Shown one piece after another: positions 3,238-56,306 of a DNA stretch of 64,000 nucleotides (position 1 is the stretch's first letter; every line of letters starts with the position of its first letter). The DNA comes from Patescibacteria group bacterium (GTDB lineage Bacteria > Patescibacteriota > Doudnabacteria > UBA920). Under the pieces are notes generated by a model. That model was given only the letters and a program-made list of their open reading frames with translations, searched no databases and was not told where the DNA came from. Location of the stretch: contig WARV01000008.1 in assembly GCA_013387205.1 (NCBI GenBank), forward strand, positions 128,136-192,135. Reading direction: 5' to 3'. Both the position numbers and the translations under genes were made by a program.

Positions 3238-3362
3238 GTCATTGCGAGGAGCGCATCCGATCGAGACAATCTGATCACCGGGCGTCATCCTGAGTGCAGC
3301 CGAAGGATCTCAATAAAAATAAGAGATTCTTCGCCCTCAGATGCATTCGGGCTCAGAATGAC
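3238..3362. repeat. GTCATTGCGAG-family modular palindromic repeat, copy 1 (modules A + B + inverted B), inside greA 5' UTR
   Basis: gtcattgcgagg...caatc ; gtcatcctgagtgcagccgaaggatctc ; loop ; gagattcttcg...ctcagaatgac. Confidence 0.7.
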
Positions 3363-3398
3363 GCCGTTGGCTGACACACTCGCCAAAATGCAATCATA

Positions 3399-3909: not shown

Positions 3910-3927
3910 ATACTTTAAGCATAAAAA

Positions 3928-4023
3928 TAATCCGAATTATCCGAATATTATCCAAATGACCCGAATAGGGAAGAACTCATTTGGGGCATTCGGATGCTGA
4001 TTCGGGGCATTAGGATTACATAA
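3928..4023. repeat. ~95-bp palindromic ATCCGAAT/ATTCGGAT element, copy A, ending exactly at lysS start codon
   Basis: aatccgaattatccgaat...caaatgacccgaa...catttgg.gcattcggatgctgattcggggcattaggattacataa; near-identical copy upstream of tsf. Confidence 0.6.
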
Positions 4024-9821: not shown

Positions 9822-9843
9822 TTATGTAAATAATACTTGCAAA

Positions 9844-9878
9844 GGGCATCCTTGATCTGATCAAGGATGCCCTTTTTT
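9844..9878. terminator. hairpin terminator (AAAGGGCAYCC family, copy 1) with T6
   Basis: gggcatccttgatctgatcaaggatgccc + tttttt. Confidence 0.7.
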
Positions 9879-9892
9879 GATACCCCACGAAT

Positions 9893-9915
9893 ACCTCAAC
9901 CGATGGTTGAGCCAT
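9893..9915. repeat. GGCTCAACC-N4-GGTTGAGCC hairpin family, degenerate copy 1
   Basis: cctcaaccgatggttgagcc. Confidence 0.5.
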
Positions 9916-9928
9916 TCAATTCCGCATA

Positions 9929-10042
9929 CCCCGTATATCAACATTCGATTCTGTTATTTTACCCAGCTTTGATAACAACCAAGTCTTGTTGTAATATCAG
10001 CATATTGATATTGCTAACCATATCGAATGTTGTATTACGGGG
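9929..10042. mobile_element. MITE-like element, copy 1 (~114 bp, ~21-bp terminal inverted repeats CCCCGTATATCAACATTCGAT)
   Basis: near-identical second copy at 48989..49101; TIR ccccgtatatcaacattcgat / atcgaatgttgtattacgggg; no coding capacity. Confidence 0.7.
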
Positions 10043-10076
10043 CTTAAATAAGCCAATTATATTTTCTACAAAAAAC

Positions 10077-12824: not shown

Positions 12825-12848
12825 GGGATTAAACTGAACTCATCCTAT

Positions 12849-12962
12849 CCTTCTCTTTAGCAAAGAGAAGGAACCAACTAAGTAAGATTAGTAAATAATT
12901 ATCAGCTAACCTTTCTTAGCATGTTCTCCCTCTTTTCTAAAGAGGGAGACAGAGGGAGTTCT
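12849..12962. repeat. structured direct repeat unit 1 (two hairpins CCTYCTCTTT-N3-AAAGAGRAGG plus CTTAGCATGTTC core) flanking DUF559 gene
   Basis: ccttctctttagcaaagagaaggaaccaactaa...cttagcatgttctccctcttttctaaagagggagacagagggagttc; second unit at 13348..13459. Confidence 0.6.
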
Positions 12963-12984
12963 GAATTAGTTATGTTTTTAATTG

Positions 12985-13335
12985 TTAGATTGTTTTAACG
13001 ATTTCTTCGTATACACCCTCAATATTATTCAAGACATCATTATTCCAAAAACGGATGACATAGACACCTATGCTATTTAAGTATTCAGTTCTTTCCTTAT
13101 CATAAAGCTTATCAACTTCCAGATTATGCTGTCCGCCATCGATCTCTATACATAACTTTATTGAAGGGCAATAAAAATCGAGGATATACCTTCCAACCCC
13201 GTATTGCCTAAAAAACTTTAAACCCTTTATTTTCCTGTTTCTTACAATTCCCCAAATTTTCCTTTCCGCATCTGTAAGTCTTTTACGTAATGTTTTTCGT
13301 ATTTCTTTTGTTTGGGACTTGTTATAGATTCTCAT
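12985..13335 (-). CDS. DUF559 endonuclease-domain protein (Vsr/restriction-endonuclease-like fold)
   Basis: LTDAERKIWGIVRNRKIKGLKFFRQY...YILDFYCPSIKLCIEIDGGQH...VIRFWNNDV typical of DUF559; 116 aa. Confidence 0.75.
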   Translation of the reverse strand: MRIYNKSQTKEIRKTLRKRLTDAERKIWGIVRNRKIKGLKFFRQYGVGRYILDFYCPSIKLCIEIDGGQHNLEVDKLYDKERTEYLNSIGVYVIRFWNNDVLNNIEGVYEEIVKTI

Positions 13336-13347
13336 GGAAATTCTTAA

Positions 13348-13459
13348 CTCCTCCTGTCCTCCTCTTTTTTAAAGAGGAGGAACCAACTAAAACGCTAAAA
13401 TGATAATCATCACCACATCGTCTTAGCATGTTCCCTCTCTTTACCAAAGAGAAGGGCAG
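13348..13459. repeat. structured direct repeat unit 2 (same architecture as 12849..12962, with compensatory stem substitutions)
   Basis: cctcctcttttttaaagaggaggaaccaactaaaacg...cttagcatgttccctctctttaccaaagagaagggcagggtgagttcc. Confidence 0.6.
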
Positions 13460-13470
13460 GGTGAGTTCCG

Positions 13471-15144
13471 TTATTCAATTTTATACACCGCCATTGTGGC
13501 TTGGTTGAATTTATTGCGGTATTCGAGAAATAAACGAGCTTGCGGATGGTATTGCTTGAATTTCTTGATGTCAAAAATGCTGGATTGGGTAAAGATAACT
13601 TTATCGCCAAGCTTTAAATTGGAGAGCTTCCAGGAATCTTCCGGGTCAACTTGGTTGTATGGCACATTGCAAGGATCACTGAAATCACCATGCCAGTTGC
13701 TGGTTAAATAATCGGTTGTTTGCACCGAGAATTTATCGAGCACGAGATAAGTATGTTCCTTATCGCAATTTTGGACAAGATATTTACTGGTTCTGGTTAA
13801 GTCTGACCTGAAGTAATAAAAATTTTCCGGAGAATTTGCCGCATAAACAAAATACAAAAAGTAAGTCTGCAAAATTAATGCCAAGACAAAAGCCGCAGCT
13901 GCAAATTTAAACGCGTTCAGCACTAGCCTGGATCTTCTTGAATCATCCATGTGGTATTTGGTATAGACTCCGTGGTGCGCTTTTAGCACAATGCGGCAAA
14001 ATTCATAAATCGCCCATGCGGTTATTATAAACACGACAGGGATTGTGCCGATGGACCTAAGCCCATGGGGAATTCCTTCTGCCGTAGTGATAACAGGAAG
14101 CAACATACCCCAAAACCATCCGGTTAATAGGAAATACGGCCAAAAATGCTTCCTTTTGTTCGGCGCAAAAAAATACCAAATGCCGAAAATAGTGACAATT
14201 ACCAAGCCGATACCGAAAAACGGGCTGATGATTTGCGACAGGAAGGGGAATCCGGAAATGTTATGCCGCCAATTCAAATCGCCTTTAGTAAAGTAGGCAA
14301 GCATGCTTTCCTTTAAAACCTGCCCGACTGTACCGATTAAATTGCCATGGTTAAGCTCCGGGTTAAATACGCTAACCTGTCCGCTACGGCCGACAAATGA
14401 ACCAGGGTGGGTGTAAAAATATTTCGCAATGGGATAAATAAAAACTACAAAACCGATAATAAAACTGATAACAGGTAATTTATAACTAGAAGCAGTTTTC
14501 CAGAATTGTTTTTGCTTGATTTGGGCAAGCAGCGGCCAGGCTATTATCATAAACAAAATAGGAGCCATTATGCGGTAAGCGATGTATGTGTAAAAACCCA
14601 AGGCAAATGACGCGCCGGTAAGCAATGCCAAAATCATGCGATTTCTTAAAGTTTTTGACTGGAAACTGGCAATCAGCAAATACAAAGTCAGGGTGGAAAA
14701 GAGGGGAATAAGATTGGCGCGAAAAGCAGTACGTGACAAAACCACATACCAGGAATTTACAGCCATCAAAAATGAAGCCAAAAGAGCGATGTTAACGGAA
14801 CGGTTTTTGTCTTCGCCATTAAACATGGAAAACAACCTTCTGGTTAAAAAGAAAGTAATTAAAACCGACAAAACTCCTACTAAAGCCGAAACAATATGAT
14901 GTTGCCACGGACCTTTGCCAAAAAGTTCAACGCTGCCCCAAAGCATGTAAAAGAACAAGGCCTCCCTTCCGTTCCCGCGTTCGTAAAACGGCTGTAAGTG
15001 CCCTTGCTGCATTAAGTTAATATCCAATCCGTTGGCGGCTTCATCAGGGAATAGTCCGCCAGGCATAATGTTAATTTGGTAAAATCTAAAAAACACGGCC
15101 AAAAATATTATGCCGATTAAGAACAATTTTTGTTTCTGCGTCAT
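13471..15144 (-). CDS. membrane glycosyltransferase, PMT/ArnT (GT39/GT83-like) family, paralog
   Basis: FYQINIMPGGLFPDEAANGLDINLMQQG... N-terminal motif and ~12 TM segments; 557 aa. Confidence 0.75.
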   Translation of the reverse strand: MTQKQKLFLIGIIFLAVFFRFYQINIMPGGLFPDEAANGLDINLMQQGHLQPFYERGNGREALFFYMLWGSVELFGKGPWQHHIVSALVGVLSVLITFFLTRRLFSMFNGEDKNRSVNIALLASFLMAVNSWYVVLSRTAFRANLIPLFSTLTLYLLIASFQSKTLRNRMILALLTGASFALGFYTYIAYRIMAPILFMIIAWPLLAQIKQKQFWKTASSYKLPVISFIIGFVVFIYPIAKYFYTHPGSFVGRSGQVSVFNPELNHGNLIGTVGQVLKESMLAYFTKGDLNWRHNISGFPFLSQIISPFFGIGLVIVTIFGIWYFFAPNKRKHFWPYFLLTGWFWGMLLPVITTAEGIPHGLRSIGTIPVVFIITAWAIYEFCRIVLKAHHGVYTKYHMDDSRRSRLVLNAFKFAAAAFVLALILQTYFLYFVYAANSPENFYYFRSDLTRTSKYLVQNCDKEHTYLVLDKFSVQTTDYLTSNWHGDFSDPCNVPYNQVDPEDSWKLSNLKLGDKVIFTQSSIFDIKKFKQYHPQARLFLEYRNKFNQATMAVYKIE

Positions 15145-19552: not shown

Positions 19553-19652
19553 ATATAAATATCATTCCCGGAAAACGAGCGATCGCTCGAAATCCGGGAA
19601 CTGGTTAGAATCAATAAAACAGGGCGAGGGTTGAGCCATTCATGGACGCTAC

Positions 19653-19687
19653 AAAGGGCATCCTTGGTCAGACCAAGGATGCCCTTT
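19653..19687. terminator. hairpin (AAAGGGCAYCC family, copy 2), likely bidirectional terminator between rplU and recR
   Basis: aaagggcatccttggtcagaccaaggatgcccttt. Confidence 0.5.
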
Positions 19688-19708
19688 GTTTCAATTTAGT
19701 TTGATAAA

Positions 19709-21996: not shown

Positions 21997-23046
21997 TTAC
22001 GCCAAAATGCTAATATTTTTAAGGATACCATCTAACTGTTCAAGACTATTTACCTGGCTTAATTCTTTGCGAAGTTCAGAGGCATTCGGAAAACCCTTAA
22101 AATACCAAAGCAGGTGTTTTCTAAGTTCAAGCATACCTCTGTCGCCCTTATATCGGTACACAAGGTGCGCCTGGTCCATTATGGTTTGGATTCGTGTCTG
22201 CAAATTTATTTCTGGCTTAAACTTCCCTTCCAAAGCGGATTTGATTTCTGCAAAAATGAACGGGTTGCCGAGAGAGCTTTGTGCGACCATCACACCATCA
22301 GCACCAGTGTGCTGTAAAGCCTGTTTTGCTTTTTCACCGGAATCTATTCCGCCGTTAATCAGCACGGTTACGTCCGTATCTTTGAAAAATTCTTTTACCT
22401 GTTTGCCGATATCCCAATTAGGCTGGCCGTGATGGACTTGCTCGTATGTCCTCATGTGCACTGTGACGTTTTCAAAAGGCGCGCCTTTAATGGCCTGTAA
22501 AAAATCCAAAGCCGTGACATGCTTGTATGAAGCGCGCAGTTTAATAGATGTCGGCAGATTAGCTGCTTCTTTTACTAAAGTAACAATTTTCTTTGCAGCC
22601 TCAGGGTTTAAAAACAAGCAGCTGCCCGCGCCGTTATTTATAACGCTTCTGGCTGGACAGCCGAAGTTAATGTCAAACCCGTCGGGATTAAACCTGTGTT
22701 TCAAGATTTTTGCGGCAATGGAAAAATGTTCCGGTGTCGGGCCGAACAATTGGATAATAAACGGCCGCTCTTCTTCTATAAATTCAGCGAGCCTGCAAGA
22801 CTTATCATCAGCCCATATGGCGTCATCCTGAGCACAGTGAAGCATCTCTTTATCTGATAGCGATAACGGATCTTTTCCGATTAAACTTTTTACCTTATAA
22901 TATAGCGCGTCAGTGGAAATAAATTCGCTGAATGTGATATCCGAGCCCCATTTTCTCGCAACTGAGCGCGCGGCAATATCCGTAACTCCGCTCATGGGAG
23001 CCAAGGCCACAACAGGCTTTTTGATTGTTTTCCAGGAAAAAGGCAT
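21997..23046 (-). CDS. dus: tRNA-dihydrouridine synthase (DusB-like) carrying an in-frame repeat-derived insertion
   Basis: ALAPMSGVTD..., FMN-binding TIM-barrel motifs (QLFGPTPEHF, NFGCPARSV, INGGI); ~24 extra aa (EMLHCAQDD...) relative to E. coli DusB spacing. Confidence 0.85.
   Translation of the reverse strand: MPFSWKTIKKPVVALAPMSGVTDIAARSVARKWGSDITFSEFISTDALYYKVKSLIGKDPLSLSDKEMLHCAQDDAIWADDKSCRLAEFIEEERPFIIQLFGPTPEHFSIAAKILKHRFNPDGFDINFGCPARSVINNGAGSCLFLNPEAAKKIVTLVKEAANLPTSIKLRASYKHVTALDFLQAIKGAPFENVTVHMRTYEQVHHGQPNWDIGKQVKEFFKDTDVTVLINGGIDSGEKAKQALQHTGADGVMVAQSSLGNPFIFAEIKSALEGKFKPEINLQTRIQTIMDQAHLVYRYKGDRGMLELRKHLLWYFKGFPNASELRKELSQVNSLEQLDGILKNISILA
22822..22848. repeat. B-module of GTCATTGCGAG family (GTCATCCTGAGCACAGTGAAGCATCTC) embedded in-frame in dus
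   Basis: 27-nt match to gtcatYctgagtgcaNccgaagRatctc; encodes EMLHCAQDD on the minus strand. Confidence 0.55.
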
Positions 23047-24199: not shown

Positions 24200-24231
24200 C
24201 CCCCAGGGAACGTTCCCTGGGGGTTTGTCTT
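24200..24231. terminator. bidirectional terminator between hypothetical gene and cysS
   Basis: cccccagggaacgttccctggggg + tttgtctt. Confidence 0.7.
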
Positions 24232-25621
24232 ATATATTTATTTTCTTTTTCACCTTCTGCCCTTCGGCCGTATCCATCACCTCGTATCCCAACTCTTCAA
24301 TCCGCTTCCTTAATTCGTCGGATTTGGCAAAATCTTTAGCATCCCTGGCCTGCTGCCTTTGTCCTAGCAAAGCCGATGCTTCTTCTGTGGGAGATGTTTC
24401 TTTAGGAGGATTATCCAAGTTAAACCCTAAAACTTTATCAAATTTTAATATTGAAGCAATTTTAATTTCCTTTGCTATTTTATTGTCATCAACAAGCTTC
24501 CAGACAACTGCCAAAGCTTGGGGAATGTTTAAATCATCATTAATTGCCTCTAAAAATTCTTTTTCGTATTCAGCTGCGCCTTCTTTGCCAGGTTTTACAT
24601 CCCTGATAAAATCAAATAATTTTTCCGAAGTATTATGCGCAAAAAGCATGCCCTCCCAAGTAAAATTTAATTGCGAACGGTAATGCGCGGTCAGGCAGAG
24701 ATAACGATAATCAAGAGGGGAGAACCCTTTGTCTTTTACATCATTCAAAGTAATGAAGGTTCCCGCGCTTTTTGCCATTTTGTTGTCATTAATCTGCAAA
24801 AACCTGCCGTGCATCCATAAATTAGCCAGAGGCACCCCAAAAGCGGCTTCGCTTTGCGCCATTTCATTGGGATGATGGGTGCCAATATGGTCTTCGCCTC
24901 CGGTGTGAATATCGAATGGCTGTCCTAATTCCTGCCTGGAAATTGCGGAGCATTCAATGTGCCACCCTGGGAAACCTTCACCCCATGGCGACGGCCAGTG
25001 TAAAATATGATTTTTATAACGGCCTGCCAAAAAGAACCATAAAGCAAAATCGGCCGGATTCTTTTTCTTTAAATCCACTACAACATCCCCGCGCGCGCCA
25101 GTTTGTTTATCCGACAATTTTTGCCCGGATAATTTTCCGTAATCCGGTAATTTGGAAGTATCAAAGTAAATCGCAGATTCATCACGGTAAGTATAGCCTT
25201 TTTGTTCTAAAATCTTGATAATTTCTATTTGGGAAGGAATAGCTTCTGTTGCCCGAACAACTTTACCAGGCATCTCGATATTTAAATCTTTTAAATCCGA
25301 GAAAAATCTCTGCTCATAGAATTTTGCAATTTCCAGAGGGGATTTGCCTTCGCGCCTGGCGCCAACGTCTATTTTATCTTCACCTTCGTCGCCATCGCCG
25401 ACCAAATGGCCGACATCTGTCACGTTCATGACATGCTTTACCTGATAGCCGTTGTATTCCAAAACGCGGCGCAGTAAATCTTCAAAAATATAGGTGCGCA
25501 AATTCCCGATATGGGCAAAATTATAAACCGTGGGGCCGCAAGTGTAGAGCCGGACTTGAGTTTTATCAATCGGCTTAAAATCCTCAAGTTGTCTTGATAA
25601 CGTATTATAAAATTTAATCAT
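24230..25621 (-). CDS. cysS: cysteine--tRNA ligase
   Basis: HIGN (NFAHIGNLRTY), KMAKS-like (NDNKMAKSAG), zinc-binding Cys, DALR C-domain; 463 aa. Confidence 0.95.
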   Translation of the reverse strand: MIKFYNTLSRQLEDFKPIDKTQVRLYTCGPTVYNFAHIGNLRTYIFEDLLRRVLEYNGYQVKHVMNVTDVGHLVGDGDEGEDKIDVGARREGKSPLEIAKFYEQRFFSDLKDLNIEMPGKVVRATEAIPSQIEIIKILEQKGYTYRDESAIYFDTSKLPDYGKLSGQKLSDKQTGARGDVVVDLKKKNPADFALWFFLAGRYKNHILHWPSPWGEGFPGWHIECSAISRQELGQPFDIHTGGEDHIGTHHPNEMAQSEAAFGVPLANLWMHGRFLQINDNKMAKSAGTFITLNDVKDKGFSPLDYRYLCLTAHYRSQLNFTWEGMLFAHNTSEKLFDFIRDVKPGKEGAAEYEKEFLEAINDDLNIPQALAVVWKLVDDNKIAKEIKIASILKFDKVLGFNLDNPPKETSPTEEASALLGQRQQARDAKDFAKSDELRKRIEELGYEVMDTAEGQKVKKKINI

Positions 25622-27490: not shown

Positions 27491-27605
27491 GTCATTGCGA
27501 GAAGCCCGCAGGGCGACGTGGCAATCTAATCCTAAATCGAGATCCTTCGGATGCACTCAGGATGACGCCTGTGGCGCCAGATCAGATGCATTCGCCCGCA
27601 ATGAC
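27491..27605. repeat. GTCATTGCGAG-family repeat, copy 2 (A + inverted B + inverted A-end), immediately upstream of adk start
   Basis: gtcattgcgagaagc...ggcaatc ; gagatccttcggatgcactcaggatgac ; ...cgcccgcaatgac. Confidence 0.7.
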
Positions 27606-29740: not shown

Positions 29741-29769
29741 AATGGCTCAACCGTGGCTTGAGCCATTTA
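29741..29769. repeat. GGCTCAACC-family hairpin, copy
   Basis: gaatggctcaaccgtggcttgagccattt. Confidence 0.6.
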
Positions 29770-29805
29770 AATACCTGATTTTATTGGTTATTTTAACATG
29801 TAGAA

Positions 29806-33410: not shown

Positions 33411-33449
33411 AGCCCCTAGGACCTAAAAATCCTGGGGGCTATTTATTTT
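33411..33449 (+). terminator. rho-independent terminator ending the GC-rich unit
   Basis: agcccctaggacctaaaaatcctgggggct (11-bp stem incl. one G-U) + atttatttt. Confidence 0.6.
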
Positions 33450-33552
33450 GTCATTGCGAGCGACTGAAAGGAGCGCGGCAATCTGTACATCAAGAGATTG
33501 CTTCCACCTTCGCTAAAGCTACGGCGGACAAGTCGGATGCACTCGTGATGAC
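33450..33552. repeat. GTCATTGCGAG-family repeat, copy 3
   Basis: gtcattgcgagcgactgaaaggagcgcggcaatc ... gagattgcttc...tcggatgcactcgtgatgac. Confidence 0.65.
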
Positions 33553-33584
33553 GGACCAAAATCTACTTATCCACATTTAAATTT

Positions 33585-33969: not shown

Positions 33970-34040
33970 GAATGGCTCATCCGATGGTTGAGGTATTCAG
34001 CCTATCAGTCTGATACGACTTATGTGTCCTATAGGACTTA
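33970..34040. repeat. GGCTCAACC-family hairpin (degenerate) followed by TCCTATCAGTC/ATAGGAC repeat cluster (locus 2)
   Basis: gaatggctcatccgatggttgaggtattc ; cctatcagtctgatacgacttatgtgtcctataggacttat. Confidence 0.45.
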
Positions 34041-34115
34041 TTGGACAGATATGGAATAGGCGGTCAGATGACCGCCTATAAATCTTACATCTTATATCTT
34101 ACCTCTTATATCTCC

Positions 34116-40704: not shown

Positions 40705-40788
40705 ATTTGTCTTATAAGTCCTATAGGACCTATAGGTCGTATAAGACTGATAGGATAGCGAATGGCTCAACCCACGGTTGAGGTGTTC
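40705..40788. repeat. ATAGGAC/CTTATAAG repeat cluster (locus 3) plus GGCTCAACC-family hairpin
   Basis: cttataagtcctataggacctataggtcgtataagactgataggat ; gaatggctcaacccacggttgaggtgttc. Confidence 0.45.
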
Positions 40789-40931
40789 AGATGCCTATAA
40801 ACATTGGCTTTTCTAATTTACCCATCATCTTGCCAAAAATTGCTGAATCTGTTATAATCTACGCATTGACATTTTAAGACCGTGTGAGTAGGCAAATTTT
40901 GCTCATGGGCATGGTCGAGAGAAAGAATAAT

Positions 40932-42559: not shown

Positions 42560-42640
42560 ATTTTGAAACCCTCTTCTCCTTGCCAGGAGAAGAGTTGGAG
42601 ATGAGGTCGAAACACGGCAACAGACCCAGATATATTTCAC

Positions 42641-42716
42641 AAAGGGCACCCTTTATCAGATAAAGGGTGCCCTTTGTTGTGTCTGGTGAACGGCTCAACC
42701 CACGGTTGAGCCGTTC
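42641..42716. repeat. AAAGGGCAYCC-family hairpin (copy 3) followed by GGCTCAACC-family hairpin
   Basis: aaagggcaccctttatcagataaagggtgcccttt ; gaacggctcaacccacggttgagccgttc. Confidence 0.5.
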
Positions 42717-42774
42717 ATTTACCCGATTTTGTTGATAATTTGTTTGTGTTATAATGCTCGAACAGGAGGCCTTA

Positions 42775-43072: not shown

Positions 43073-43996
43073 CTATATCTTTATTTCCGCATATCTCCAC
43101 TTGCCCGCGAAATCTTTGTGGAAATTTATTACTGCATTTGGCAGATTTTTTTTAATTAGATGATTTAATTCCTGCTTTTGTCTTGGATCGAATTCCAAAT
43201 AAACTAATTTTGGCTTGTTTTTTCTCTGCGCGATTTGCTCCAAAAGTTTTCTGATTAACACCAGCCCATTTTCTTTTGCAAAAATGGAATTTTTCGGCTC
43301 AAATTTTAAATTTGCTTTAAGTTTTTTATAATCACTAACTGGAACGTAGGGGAGATTGGCGATTATAATATCAAAATCTCCTTTAACATTTTTCAGTAAA
43401 TCGCTTTTTATGAATTGAATACCACTCACGCCAATTCTCCCATACGCTGGAGTATGGGAGTTTTTGGCTAAAATATTTTTAGCGTTCTCTTTTGCAACCT
43501 TCAAAGCTTTTTCTGATATATCTGATGCAACAATCCGCAATTCGTAATCCGCAATCCGAAATTCTTTCGCCAACGAAACCGCAATGCATCCGCTTCCTGT
43601 CCCAATGTCCAAAATTTTTACAATGTCATTGCGAGGAGCCAGGGCTTTATCTGGCGACGAAGCAATCTTTTCTTGGCTTGGTTTAGATTGCTTCGCTCGG
43701 ATGCACTCGCTCGCAATGACAAGGTCCACCACCATCTCCGTCTCCGGCCTGGGGATTAAAACATCCTTATTCACCTTAAACCTTAAGCCCCTAAAATCCT
43801 TGTATCCCAAAATATACGCAATCGGTTCGCCTTTAAGGCGGCGTTTAATGAATTTTGTTAAATTGTTATATTGTTTTTTTGTTAAATTGTAATCTGGATG
43901 CAAAAAAACAAACTCCTTGGGCTTTTTCAAAACATGCGCCAGCAGGAGTTCAATTTCTATTTTATGGTATTTTTTTAAAGCCACGCTGATTGTCAT
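43073..43996 (-). CDS. prmC: release-factor glutamine methyltransferase (PrmC/HemK) with in-frame repeat-element insertion
   Basis: PRPETEMVV, DIGTGSGCIAVSLA, NLPY(V) motif (ANLPYVPVSD); ~30 extra residues between PETE and DIGTG. Confidence 0.85.
   Translation of the reverse strand: MTISVALKKYHKIEIELLLAHVLKKPKEFVFLHPDYNLTKKQYNNLTKFIKRRLKGEPIAYILGYKDFRGLRFKVNKDVLIPRPETEMVVDLVIASECIRAKQSKPSQEKIASSPDKALAPRNDIVKILDIGTGSGCIAVSLAKEFRIADYELRIVASDISEKALKVAKENAKNILAKNSHTPAYGRIGVSGIQFIKSDLLKNVKGDFDIIIANLPYVPVSDYKKLKANLKFEPKNSIFAKENGLVLIRKLLEQIAQRKNKPKLVYLEFDPRQKQELNHLIKKNLPNAVINFHKDFAGKWRYAEIKI
43625..43720. repeat. GTCATTGCGAG-family repeat, copy 4, with perfect terminal inverted repeats GTCATTGCGAG/CTCGCAATGAC, inserted in-frame in prmC
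   Basis: gtcattgcgaggagccagggctttatctggcgacgaagcaatc...tcggatgcactcgctcgcaatgac; 96 bp = 32 codons (residues ~92-123 of PrmC). Confidence 0.65.
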
Positions 43997-45904: not shown

Positions 45905-45985
45905 TGCGAATGGCATCCGAATCAGCGAATGACTATGAATATAATATTCGGGTCATTCGGATATGATTCGGGTCATTCGGATCGG
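45905..45985. repeat. ATTCGGAT/ATCCGAAT repeat cluster
   Basis: gcgaatggcatccgaatcagcgaatgac...attcgggtcattcggatatgattcgggtcattcggat. Confidence 0.45.
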
Positions 45986-46084
45986 TTAAATTGGTTAACT
46001 TATCAGAATTATCTCATATATTATAATCTCTCTTGCCAAAATAGTCAAGGCCTGGTATAATTACAGCAATATTAATCTAACATG

Positions 46085-46208: not shown

Positions 46209-46937
46209 ATGAAAGAGATAACTCTCTTGGACCTGCTTAAAAGCGGCGCTCACTTTGGACACACCACCTCAAAATGGAACCCCAAAATGAAGCCGTATAT
46301 TTTTACGGTCCGCAACAACATCCATATTTTGGATTTGGAAAAGACTAAAAAGGCCTTGCTTAACGCCGCCAAGTTCGCCCAGGACATAACTTCCAAGGGC
46401 GGTACGGTTTTATTCATTGGCACCAAAAGGCAGTCAAAGGAAATAATCAAGAAAGCAGCCCAGTCCTGCAGCATGCCTTATGTTAATGTCCGCTGGCTGG
46501 GAGGAACTTTTACCAACCACAGGACTATCCAAAGGACCATCCATAAGCTGGAACGCCTGGAAAATTTAAAAGCTACCGGCGAACTGGAAAGCCATTACAC
46601 CAAAAAGGAAAGATTGCTCATTGAGCGTGAAATTGAAAAGATGAAAAAATTGTTCGAAGGCATACAGAACATGAAGCGCTTGCCTGAAGCGATTTTTGTC
46701 ACCGACGTCAAACATGACGACATTGCAGTAAAAGAAGCGCAAAAGAGCAGGGTCAAAGTCATCGGCTTGGCTGATACTAACAGCAACCCGGACGGATTAG
46801 ACTATGCCATTCCTTGCAACGACGACGCGACTAAAGCTATTGAACTTATGTGCACTGTAATTTCCGAAGCCATTAACGAAGGCAGAAAAACCCAGGCAGT
46901 CGTTAAAGAGAGCCTGGTCAAAGAAAATCAAAAATAA
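46209..46937 (+). CDS. rpsB: 30S ribosomal protein S2
   Basis: LLKSGAHFGHTTSKWNPKMKPYIF...; 242 aa. Confidence 0.95.
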   Translation: MKEITLLDLLKSGAHFGHTTSKWNPKMKPYIFTVRNNIHILDLEKTKKALLNAAKFAQDITSKGGTVLFIGTKRQSKEIIKKAAQSCSMPYVNVRWLGGTFTNHRTIQRTIHKLERLENLKATGELESHYTKKERLLIEREIEKMKKLFEGIQNMKRLPEAIFVTDVKHDDIAVKEAQKSRVKVIGLADTNSNPDGLDYAIPCNDDATKAIELMCTVISEAINEGRKTQAVVKESLVKENQK

Positions 46938-46942
46938 GTAAC

Positions 46943-47034
46943 ATAATCCGAATTATCCGAATTCTATACAAATGACCCGAAAAGGGAATTATTTGGAGCA
47001 TTCGGATACTAATTCGGGGCATTAGGATTATAAA
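46943..47034. repeat. ~95-bp palindromic ATCCGAAT/ATTCGGAT element, copy B, ending exactly at tsf start codon
   Basis: ataatccgaattatccgaattctatacaaatgacccgaaaagggaattatttggagcattcggatactaattcggggcattaggattataaa. Confidence 0.6.
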
Positions 47035-47616
47035 ATGGACAATTCATTACTAAAAGAACTCCGCGAAATGACCGGTGCAGGCATGATGGAAATTAAGGAA
47101 GCCTTGGCCGAGACCAACAACGACAAAGAAAAAACCATTGAGCTCTTAAGGAAAAAGGGCGCGCTTAAGCTCGGCAAAAAAGCCGACCGCGTAGCAAAAG
47201 AGGGGATAATTGAAACCTACATACACCCGGGCGGACGCATGGGCGTTTTGCTTGAACTTAACTGCGAAACCGATTTCGTCGCCAGGACAGACGCGTTTAA
47301 ATCTTTGGCTAAGGAAGTCTGCTTGCATGTTGCAGCAGCCAACCCATTGTACGTTTCCGTAAATGACGTGCCTGCCGAAGTCATCGAAAAAGAAAAGGAA
47401 ATTTACAAGGAACAAATGAAAGGCAAGCCCGAAGACGTCATTGCCAAAATTATGGAAGGCAAACTTGCCAAATACTTCGAAGAAGTTTGCCTGCTTGAGC
47501 AGCCGTATGTAAAAAATCCGGATATTAAAATAAAGGATTTAATCGGCGAAGCTGTCGCGAAAATCGGGGAAAACGTGCAAATCCGCCGCTTTACCCGCTA
47601 TGTATTAGGAAGCTAA
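47035..47616 (+). CDS. tsf: elongation factor Ts (short form)
   Basis: UBA-like N-terminus LKELREMTGAGMMEIKEALAETNND, dimerisation domain; 193 aa. Confidence 0.9.
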   Translation: MDNSLLKELREMTGAGMMEIKEALAETNNDKEKTIELLRKKGALKLGKKADRVAKEGIIETYIHPGGRMGVLLELNCETDFVARTDAFKSLAKEVCLHVAAANPLYVSVNDVPAEVIEKEKEIYKEQMKGKPEDVIAKIMEGKLAKYFEEVCLLEQPYVKNPDIKIKDLIGEAVAKIGENVQIRRFTRYVLGS

Positions 47617-48567: not shown

Positions 48568-48654
48568 GTCATTGCGAGGAAACAAGGGCTTTGGCTTGTT
48601 TCCGAAGCAATCTATATATCACTGGCGTCATTCTGAGTGCATCCGAAGAATCTC
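48568..48654. repeat. GTCATTGCGAG-family repeat, copy 5 (A + B modules)
   Basis: gtcattgcgaggaaacaagggctttggcttgtttccgaagcaatc ... gtcattctgagtgcatccgaagaatctc. Confidence 0.7.
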
Positions 48655-48947: not shown

Positions 48948-48978
48948 TAATGGCTCAACCGTAGGTTGAGCCATTTAT
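48948..48978. repeat. GGCTCAACC-family hairpin
   Basis: ttaatggctcaaccgtaggttgagccattta. Confidence 0.6.
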
Positions 48979-48988
48979 TTTTGCTTTA

Positions 48989-49101
48989 CCCCGTATATCA
49001 ACATTCGATTCAGTTTATTTACCAAGTATTGATAACAAATAAGCTTTGATTATTATTAACATATTGATTTTACTAATCATATCAAATGTTGTATTACGGG
49101 G
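48989..49101. mobile_element. MITE-like element, copy 2 (same family as 9929..10042)
   Basis: ccccgtatatcaacattcgattcagtttattt...atcaaatgttgtattacgggg, ~80% identical to copy 1 incl. both TIRs. Confidence 0.7.
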
Positions 49102-49149
49102 CTTATTTAAGGCTTTTTTCTAAATATTCGCATACTTATGCCAAATTCT

Positions 49150-56195: not shown

Positions 56196-56279
56196 GGCGG
56201 ATACTATCCGCCCTTTTGATTTTACCCTATAAATCTAATCTGACGAACGCCTCAACCGTCGGTTGAGGCGTTCATTCGT
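56196..56279. repeat. GGGCGGATACTATCCGCCC hairpin (copy 2) and GGCTCAACC-family hairpin with compensatory changes
   Basis: gggcggatactatccgccc ; gacgaacgcctcaaccgtcggttgaggcgttcattcgtc. Confidence 0.55.
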
Positions 56280-56306
56280 CCTATACAGGGAAAGGAGGTG
56301 AGGACG

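Follow-up and report, generated by a model that had tools for sequence, protein, structure and literature searches.

How does a piece of a dispersed palindromic repeat come to lie in frame inside a housekeeping gene, and what becomes of it there? This question is raised by dus, a tRNA-dihydrouridine synthase gene located in a 64-kb stretch (hereafter the window) of contig WARV01000008.1 from a bacterium of the Doudnabacteria lineage, within the candidate phyla radiation (CPR), in which a preliminary description had noticed a 27-nt string resembling an intergenic repeat. We analysed these 64 kb of the source genome (42% GC) together with orthologous loci and found that the 27 bases are very probably the fossil of an ancient in-frame insertion of a unit akin to repetitive extragenic palindromic (REP) sequences, now part of the protein and persisting in this genome as a decaying relic.

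A decayed repeat unit within the dus gene

The gene, the string and the intergenic units to which it was likened are positioned in the window as follows.

21997-23046, minus strand: dus (tRNA-dihydrouridine synthase, DusB-like), 349 aa, intact open reading frame (ORF)
22822-22848, plus strand (orientation of the unit): decayed repeat unit GTCATCCTGAGCACAGTGAAGCATCTC, with its CGTC tag at 22821-22824, recognised by sequence and profile match
3281-3311, plus strand: intergenic B unit of GGC plus 28 nt, making up the left side of an inverted B/B' dimer
3323-3365, minus strand: its intergenic B' partner on the right side of the dimer, beyond an 11-nt spacer and with a larger loop (profile E=3.5e-4)
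27539-27569, minus strand: intergenic B unit, with flanking A-type units at 27491-27526 (plus) and ~27570-27605 (minus)
48624-48654, plus strand: intergenic B unit, a compensatory ATTCT/AGAAT stem variant, preceded by an A unit (48568-48613) and with a tRNA downstream

The string GTCATCCTGAGCACAGTGAAGCATCTC indeed lies inside dus at 22822-22848, where its minus-strand translation, EMLHCAQDD, corresponds to Dus residues 67-75. Its assignment to the B module, for which a 28-nt consensus had been proposed, holds at the level of the profile but not of the literal consensus: the latter is matched exactly at 3284, 27566 (minus) and 48627, all intergenic, whereas the dus copy fits it at only 23/28 positions and requires one gap and four mismatches. 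The dus copy nevertheless has the 14-mer GGCGTCATCCTGAG in common with all three consensus-matching intergenic copies, and a profile hidden Markov model (HMM) built from these three copies only retrieved it with E=0.0016 (14.9 bits), ranked fifth in the window behind the four intergenic units. The control with shuffled sequence that had been proposed for this match leaves it significant, as the best score among 300 dinucleotide-shuffled windows was 11.4 bits, short of 14.9. A search for GTCATYCTGAG with up to one mismatch likewise returned five sites in the window, namely the four intergenic copies and dus. Compared without gaps to the canonical 27-mer found in orthologues and in unrelated contigs (see below), the dus copy is identical at 24/27 positions, and a broader unit profile detects it with E=8.8e-7.

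The three departures from the canonical unit comprise two amino acid replacements (I to M and R to H, turning EILRCAQDD into EMLHCAQDD) and one synonymous change. A G to C change in the window's copy breaks the stem pair C6-G24, and fold prediction does not return the canonical hairpin for it any more. With its 27-nt length the dus copy is nearer to the canonical form (loop CGCAG) than to the 28-nt form of the intergenic units of the same genome (loop TGCAKC); it keeps the older form of the unit, not the one current between the genes of this genome.

The host ORF encodes a protein of the Dus family and fold in which the catalytic cysteine is present. It belongs to PF01207, as do all 1898 homologues, and it retains residues that are invariant in an alignment of 40 proteins, including C130 (the catalytic Cys, within the FGCPA motif), K169, H197 and R199. 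A phmmer search with the window protein as query led to Thermotoga maritima 1vhn and Escherichia coli DusB (6ei9); an AlphaFold2 (AF2) model has an overall predicted local distance difference test (pLDDT) score of 91.5, and Foldseek aligned it to 1vhn, 3b0v and 6ei9 with TMt values of 0.83-0.87 (0.87 for 1vhn and 6ei9). The gene order CysS - small ORF - Dus - DnaB - RecR is common to the window and the orthologue loci, and since this order is conserved, the insert-bearing dus genes discussed below are orthologues.

The repeat peptide resides in a lineage-specific insert of Dus

The alignment of 40 Dus proteins places the repeat peptide in a segment of ~27 residues between DALYYK and DDKS.

22813-22893, minus strand: in-frame insert, residues ~52-78 (VKSLIGKDPLSLSDKEMLHCAQDDAIW), delimited by alignment with boundaries accurate to +/- 1-3 codons

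The segment is missing in P0022-P0027, the nearest of the orthologues that have no insert (61-67% identity to the window protein), in proteins of named Candidatus Doudnabacteria (P0059, P0060) and in Moranbacteria proteins. The region had been described as ~24 residues longer than in E. coli DusB; the extra length is real and slightly larger, about 28-29 residues, with E. coli DusB (6ei9) offering residues 64-66 opposite query residues 46-76, and T. maritima 1vhn residues 41-57 opposite query residues 47-92. Comparison with orthologues had been put forward as a further check, and those without the insert (P0022-P0027, P0059/P0060, E. coli DusB and the T. maritima protein) have no such peptide. 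By contrast, the insert is found at the same place in 18 other orthologue sequences (16 aligned proteins and two further loci) at ~63% identity, several of which carry EILRCAQDD exactly. A metagenome scan with the N-terminal alignment yielded only two new insert-bearing loci, and a contig profile search with the full Dus alignment gave, among the matches listed, only distant Dus proteins (at most 40% identity) that were picked up through the universal DINFGCPA motif.

Because the insert is common to orthologues at ~63% identity, the event in dus is old and did not happen recently in this genome. A recent insertion by a currently active element might be suspected from the intact intergenic units and the intact prmC dimer (see below) of the same genome, but it is very improbable given that these orthologues carry the insert at the same position with the same flanks, and that the dus copy differs from the B units of its own genome in loop (CACAG versus TGCAKC), in length (27 versus 28 nt) and in its broken stem.

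In the AF2 model the insert forms an extended helix (residues 45-56) and two further helices at 65-73 (the repeat peptide) and 75-78, with pLDDT values of 92-95 over blocks of ten residues. The I/L and C/A positions and a downstream W are conserved among the insert-bearing Dus proteins, and one orthologue (L101) has kept the peptide as EILRCARDE despite nine nucleotide changes, including CGC to AGG, a pattern which, as read from the sequences, suggests selection on the peptide at the protein level in some lineages.

The same site has received other material as well. The Dus protein P0003 (L105) has a second, different repeat-type peptide (PSLPLLTKEGLGEV; TPSLPLLTKEGLGEV) nested in the same loop, and P0028 and P0034 exhibit unrelated small insertions there.

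Some orthologous dus genes retain the repeat unit at the DNA level

We aligned the codons of 12 orthologous dus genes and located the best-preserved copies of the unit at these positions.

L081, 10208-10234: base-perfect dus unit
L082, 906-932: base-perfect dus unit
L085, 1321-1347: base-perfect dus unit
L083, 1943-1969: dus unit one base off

The nine codons in L081, L085 and L082 read GAG ATC CTT CGC TGC GCT CAG GAT GAC, that is GAGATCCTTCGCTGCGCTCAGGATGAC, which agrees at 27/27 positions with the canonical unit GTCATCCTGAGCGCAGCGAAGGATCTC in reverse complement. Identity to the canonical unit is 26/27 in L083, 25/27 in L084 and 24/27 in the window, and ranges from 9 to 20 of 27 in the other lineages. 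The canonical codons are mostly non-preferred in those genomes, the probability of the exact 27-mer given the peptide and the codon usage being 2.6e-5 to 8e-5. The exact 27-mer GTCATCCTGAGCGCAGCGAAGGATCTC is also present, often with an inverted partner 17-37 nt away, in 20 viral-classified IMG/VR contigs (L108-L127) whose GC content of 55-70% sets them far apart from the 42% GC CPR genome, to which they are unrelated. Since the orthologue codons are non-preferred and an identical 27-mer occurs in unrelated contigs, the Dus peptide comes from the dispersed repeat unit and not the reverse.

These data also bear on whether the similarity could be due to chance, or to a convergent or conserved Dus peptide that has nothing to do with repeats. 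Such an origin could be argued from the poor, gapped fit to the 28-nt consensus with its four mismatches and from the partial conservation of the peptide among orthologues, but it is scarcely credible: the model that finds the dus copy was derived from intergenic units only and was not matched by any shuffled window, the peptide is confined to insert-bearing orthologues, and the DNA of orthologues is identical, against the odds of codon usage, to a unit that unrelated contigs also carry.

The extent of this retention differs markedly between lineages, some of which keep the unit perfect, or one base off, in dus genes that are saturated elsewhere at their synonymous sites. The Dus proteins of L081 and L082 have 63% amino acid identity and use the same codon at just 44% of their identical residues, yet the longest identical nucleotide run between the two genes is the 27-mer (the next is 17), and its ends fall exactly on the borders of the unit. 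Among ~330 windows of nine codons, the most identical one is the repeat unit in each of four pairs (L081-L082, L081-L083, L082-L083 and window-L081). Third-position identity to the canonical unit falls into two groups, with 9, 9, 9, 8, 7 and 7 of nine positions in one and 1-5 in the other, and sister lineages can differ sharply (27/27 in L082 versus 14/27 in L103; 26/27 in L083 versus 19/27 in L102).

Architecture of the palindromic unit

The unit is built from a C/T-GTC tag, two 8-nt arms, a loop of ~5 nt and a 3-nt tail. The arms (ATCCTGAG / CGAAGGAT) begin AT...AT and form standard pairs at six positions, while stem positions 6-7 hold a conserved, non-Watson-Crick tandem G.A/A.G. The tag reads CGTC-AT in the dus copy and in each of the window's four B units, and TGTC in the A units; in a list of 46 units from the window, relatives and the IMG/VR contigs, most have T or C in front, giving a YGTC tag. 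Loops are 5 nt long in the canonical unit (CGCAG) and 6 nt in the intergenic units of this genome (TGCAKC), one of which has 18 nt; tails are CTC, CTA or CCC. A sister module, A, has the same architecture with another stem (TGTC-ATTGC-GAG...CGAAGCAAT-CT).

Across 15 distinct units from outside dus, the hairpin ATCCT-GA-G / C-GA-AGGAT exhibits compensatory changes at four of its six pairs (A-T to G-C, C-G to T-A, T-A to C-G and G-C to A-T), with 98.9% of the cells paired and 0/500 shuffles reaching this level. The canonical 27-mer folds into the expected hairpin, but judged by their folding energies as single sequences the 27-mers cannot be told from shuffles, so that support for the hairpin comes from covariation. 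By eye, four of the six reading frames of the canonical unit are open (VILSAAKDL, HPERSEGS, EILRCAQDD and RSFAALRMT), which would have helped insertions into coding DNA to be tolerated. Rfam at gathering thresholds recognised four tRNAs in the window but none of the repeats, and literature searches with the repeat nucleotide strings and the repeat peptides returned nothing relevant. An analogy to DNA-uptake sequences was considered and dropped, as the density is just about one unit per 13 kb of the window.

A composite at 33448-33555 (intergenic) consists of an A unit and, after it, a further unit, apparently interrupted by another repeat type (CTTCGCTAAAGCTACGGCGGACAAG, of the 'FAKATADK' kind); it looks like a nested insertion.

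Insertions of the repeat family in other genes

The preliminary description held that two unrelated housekeeping genes carry pieces of this repeat family, and this is borne out by dus together with prmC, whose A-module dimer is probably the first intragenic insertion that it had in mind.

43625-43720, minus strand: intact in-frame inverted A/A' dimer in prmC/hemK (ORF 43073-43996), encoding VIASECIRAKQSKPSQEKIASSPDKALAPRND
L103, 377-435: B/B' inverted dimer, spaced by 3 nt and in frame, inside a partial cysS (1-720) of a relative, encoding RHSERSEESKIDPSAMPQDD

The HemK structure 1sg9 has six residues where the window PrmC has 27. The same dimer is present in the orthologue P0122/L128, with an A' unit that is identical at 43/45 nt and uses the same codon at 13 of 15 positions, compared to a background of 58%. 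An alignment of 30 PrmC orthologues (P0121-P0201, columns ~115-190) revealed that the linker between PRPETE and ILDxGTGSG holds repeat-derived peptides that differ by lineage: VILRLSAAEAEES...ILRFAQDD, VIARSQATKQS...GVRND, SPLLRGD..., VIPAATKRSGELAGI...FRFRDD and DPRMREDD. So many different peptides indicate independent insertions, with the linker as a hot spot. Other PrmC loops and C-termini also have repeat peptides (RASAFAKASADK, PLSLWERGRGEG and DPSAPRMRSSVGMT). The cysS gene of the window (24230-25621) is without the RHSERSEESKIDPSAMPQDD dimer of its relative.

On the strength of the prmC dimer, the dimer in the relative's cysS and the varied peptides of the prmC loops, the family has inserted repeatedly and tolerably in coding DNA. 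The proposal that the element is or was actively inserting, and tolerably so, into genes is supported, with the qualification that the event in dus is old and the copy in the window a decayed relic.

Ancient insertion or ongoing maintenance

The scenario that very probably accounts for these observations begins with one palindromic unit and about 50-60 further bases inserting in frame into the Dus TIM barrel, between its strands beta2 and beta3, in an ancestor of a Doudnabacteria-related clade of CPR bacteria. This unit would have entered antisense, in the frame that reads EILRCAQDD; the insert would have spared the enzyme and passed down vertically, and the repeat peptide would have become part of what is modelled as a confident helical excursion. 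In this genome the unit has acquired three substitutions and lost its hairpin, and it is now ordinary coding sequence instead of an active element. The comparisons above demonstrate the match and its significance, the insert and its inheritance, the identity of orthologue DNA to the canonical unit and the covariation of the family's hairpin; the single ancestral insertion, the exaptation and any mechanism of propagation are inferred.

Several observations weigh against this account. The repeat accounts for just nine of the ~27 inserted codons, and a search of 13 genes for a partner unit elsewhere in the dus insert found none. The insert-bearing sequences are not resolved as a clade in a neighbour-joining (NJ) tree, where P0022-P0027, which have no insert, are scattered among them in a star-like radiation; because the tree does not group them, a single origin rests on the homology of the insert itself. 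The confidence of the AF2 model in the insert derives from the 40-sequence alignment, and the model is a prediction. Neither a transposase nor a target-site duplication was identified in the window and the fetched loci: tblastn with six RAYT/TIRYT proteins (RAYT, REP-associated tyrosine transposase) against the window and 47 loci, a weak test with 64 kb of the genome covered, found no RAYT-like gene (best E=0.065, inside dus itself), and no convincing duplication flanks the dus insert, where only a Lys codon stands on both sides and is present in insert-less orthologues too. Finally, perfect retention of 27 bases in some lineages and the bimodality of third-position identity are not predicted for a passively drifting fossil. 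The bimodality could reflect selection on the nucleic acid, other copies serving as a source for correction or re-insertion, or, the sample being small, chance.

We therefore weighed, as a less likely explanation, that the dus unit is actively kept or renewed at the DNA or RNA level in some lineages, through selection on a hairpin or factor-binding site, copy correction or re-insertion at a hot spot; the copy in the window might then, with similarly modest probability, be a recent escapee from such maintenance. The run of identity between L081 and L082 that stops exactly at the unit borders, the rank of the unit as the most identical nine-codon window in four pairs, the two classes of third-position identity with their sharp contrasts between sister lineages, the non-preferred canonical codons and the identical 27-mer in distant high-GC contigs all point in this direction. 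The prmC gene adds a weak replicate, in that its A' unit is conserved above background in the orthologue, and its loop indicates that independent insertions at one site are common. These arguments are tempered by the small sample of about eight independent lineages, by the post hoc choice of the nine-codon segment that was compared and by the decay of the unit in most insert-bearing lineages. Moreover, contigs with a canonical dus unit are without other copies nearby, whereas L103, whose dus unit has decayed, has a fresh dimer 2.6 kb away, so that no link is visible between family activity and maintenance. At -5.5 kcal/mol (z-score -0.25) the hairpin is weak, and for the window, whose copy has a broken hairpin, such a function is not to be expected. 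It is conceivable, though improbable, that the 27-nt unit is a nucleic-acid signal or self-renewing element that is base-perfect or repeatedly restored inside a gene across CPR lineages, in which case permissive loops (beta2-beta3 of dus and the prmC linker) would be recurrent landing or repair sites.

Relation to known palindromic repeats

The ancient in-frame insertion that we favour for dus has counterparts in other bacteria. The CGTC-tagged REPs (Di Nocera, De Gregorio and Rocco 2013; PMC3733652) are palindromes with an unpaired terminal CGTC/TGTC tag (a CCTC variant is allowed), stems of 8-9 bp that start with A-T pairs, loops of 4-5 nt and a short unpaired tail with the consensus CCA. 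They frequently form inverted dimers with variable spacers, are mostly intergenic and have no known transposase, and the catalogued copies inside ORFs, some of them in tRNA-modification genes, encode 7-30 residues (PMC3733652). The units described here resemble them in the YGTC tag, the canonical 5-nt loop, the inverted dimers and the intragenic copies, and in part in the stem, where the 8-nt arms start with AT but pair in the standard way at six positions, and in the tail, which has 3 nt; they differ in the conserved GA/AG stem positions, in a CTC/CTA tail in place of CCA, in loops of at least 6 nt in this genome and in a CPR host, a group outside the survey of CGTC REPs (PMC3733652). This likeness refers to the architecture described in the text of that study and not to the CGTC-1 to CGTC-4 consensus sequences; the peptides of Rickettsia conorii CGTC units (VIPAKAGI, SFLRKQES...DSRFRGND; PMC3733652) differ from EILRCAQDD, and the text and supplements of PMC3733652 contain no matching strings or peptides. 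Two of the Rickettsia palindromic elements (RPEs), RPE-4 and RPE-6, have been equated with CGTC-4 and CGTC-1, respectively (PMC3733652).

As for the mobile form of such repeats, inverted doublets of RAYT-mobilised GTAG REPs (REPINs) are likely mobile and singlets are decayed remnants, according to Bertels and Rainey (2011) as cited in PMC3733652. The inverted dimers at 3281-3365 and 43625-43720, at 377-435 of L103 and in the IMG/VR contigs are similar to REPINs, but the tag is YGTC and not GTAG, and no RAYT-like ORF accompanies them in the window or the fetched loci. With regard to MITEs (transposable elements of the miniature, inverted-repeat type), the dimers have inverted ends by construction, and a Lys codon is the only repeat on both sides of the dus insert.

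In behaviour, which is what we compare here and not sequence, the dus insertion is reminiscent of RPEs: both are in-frame, protein-tolerated and vertically inherited palindromic insertions in housekeeping genes. RPEs reportedly lie in frame in conserved genes, with old insertions common to orthologues, in work attributed to Ogata and colleagues in 2000. Host phylum and sequence differ, and RPE-1 has 100-150 bp compared to the 27 nt that are traceable here. In-frame insertion of palindromic repeats is thus a known phenomenon, as in Rickettsia; what is new is the CPR host group, with a modestly surprising pattern of retention at the DNA level.

The dus insert extends repeat peptides of the Rickettsia style in conserved housekeeping enzymes to the small genomes of the CPR, and it offers a dated example of the passage from repeat DNA to protein structure, as it predates ~37% of protein divergence and is now a confidently modelled helix. 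For annotators it serves as a warning that peptides of the EILRCAQDD, VIAS...PRND and VILS...AQDD kinds in CPR proteins are repeat-derived. The base-perfect retention provides a small, testable handle on selection of REP-like units at the level of the nucleic acid.

Other repeats in the window

Further repeat families lie between genes. Hairpins of the form AATGGCTCAACC...GGTTGAGCCATT occur seven times and those of the form CAAAGGGCATCCTTG...CAAGGATGCCCTTTG three times; there are also blocks in which 9-nt units similar to ATAAGTCCT stand in tandem, and a duplicate of ~125 nt whose two copies (9927-10052 and 48987-49111) are 84-85% identical. The sites of these other intergenic families are listed below.

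9840-10052, 19652-19690, 29741-29783 and 33971-34050: other intergenic repeat families
40705-40803, 42640-42731, 48949-49111 and 56246-56288: other intergenic repeat families

Repeat blocks rich in ATCCGAAT are common to three loci (3917-4023, 45945-45989 and 46933-47035), and the region 12832-13472 contains a pair of inverted or direct repeats of ~50 nt that are ~500 nt apart.

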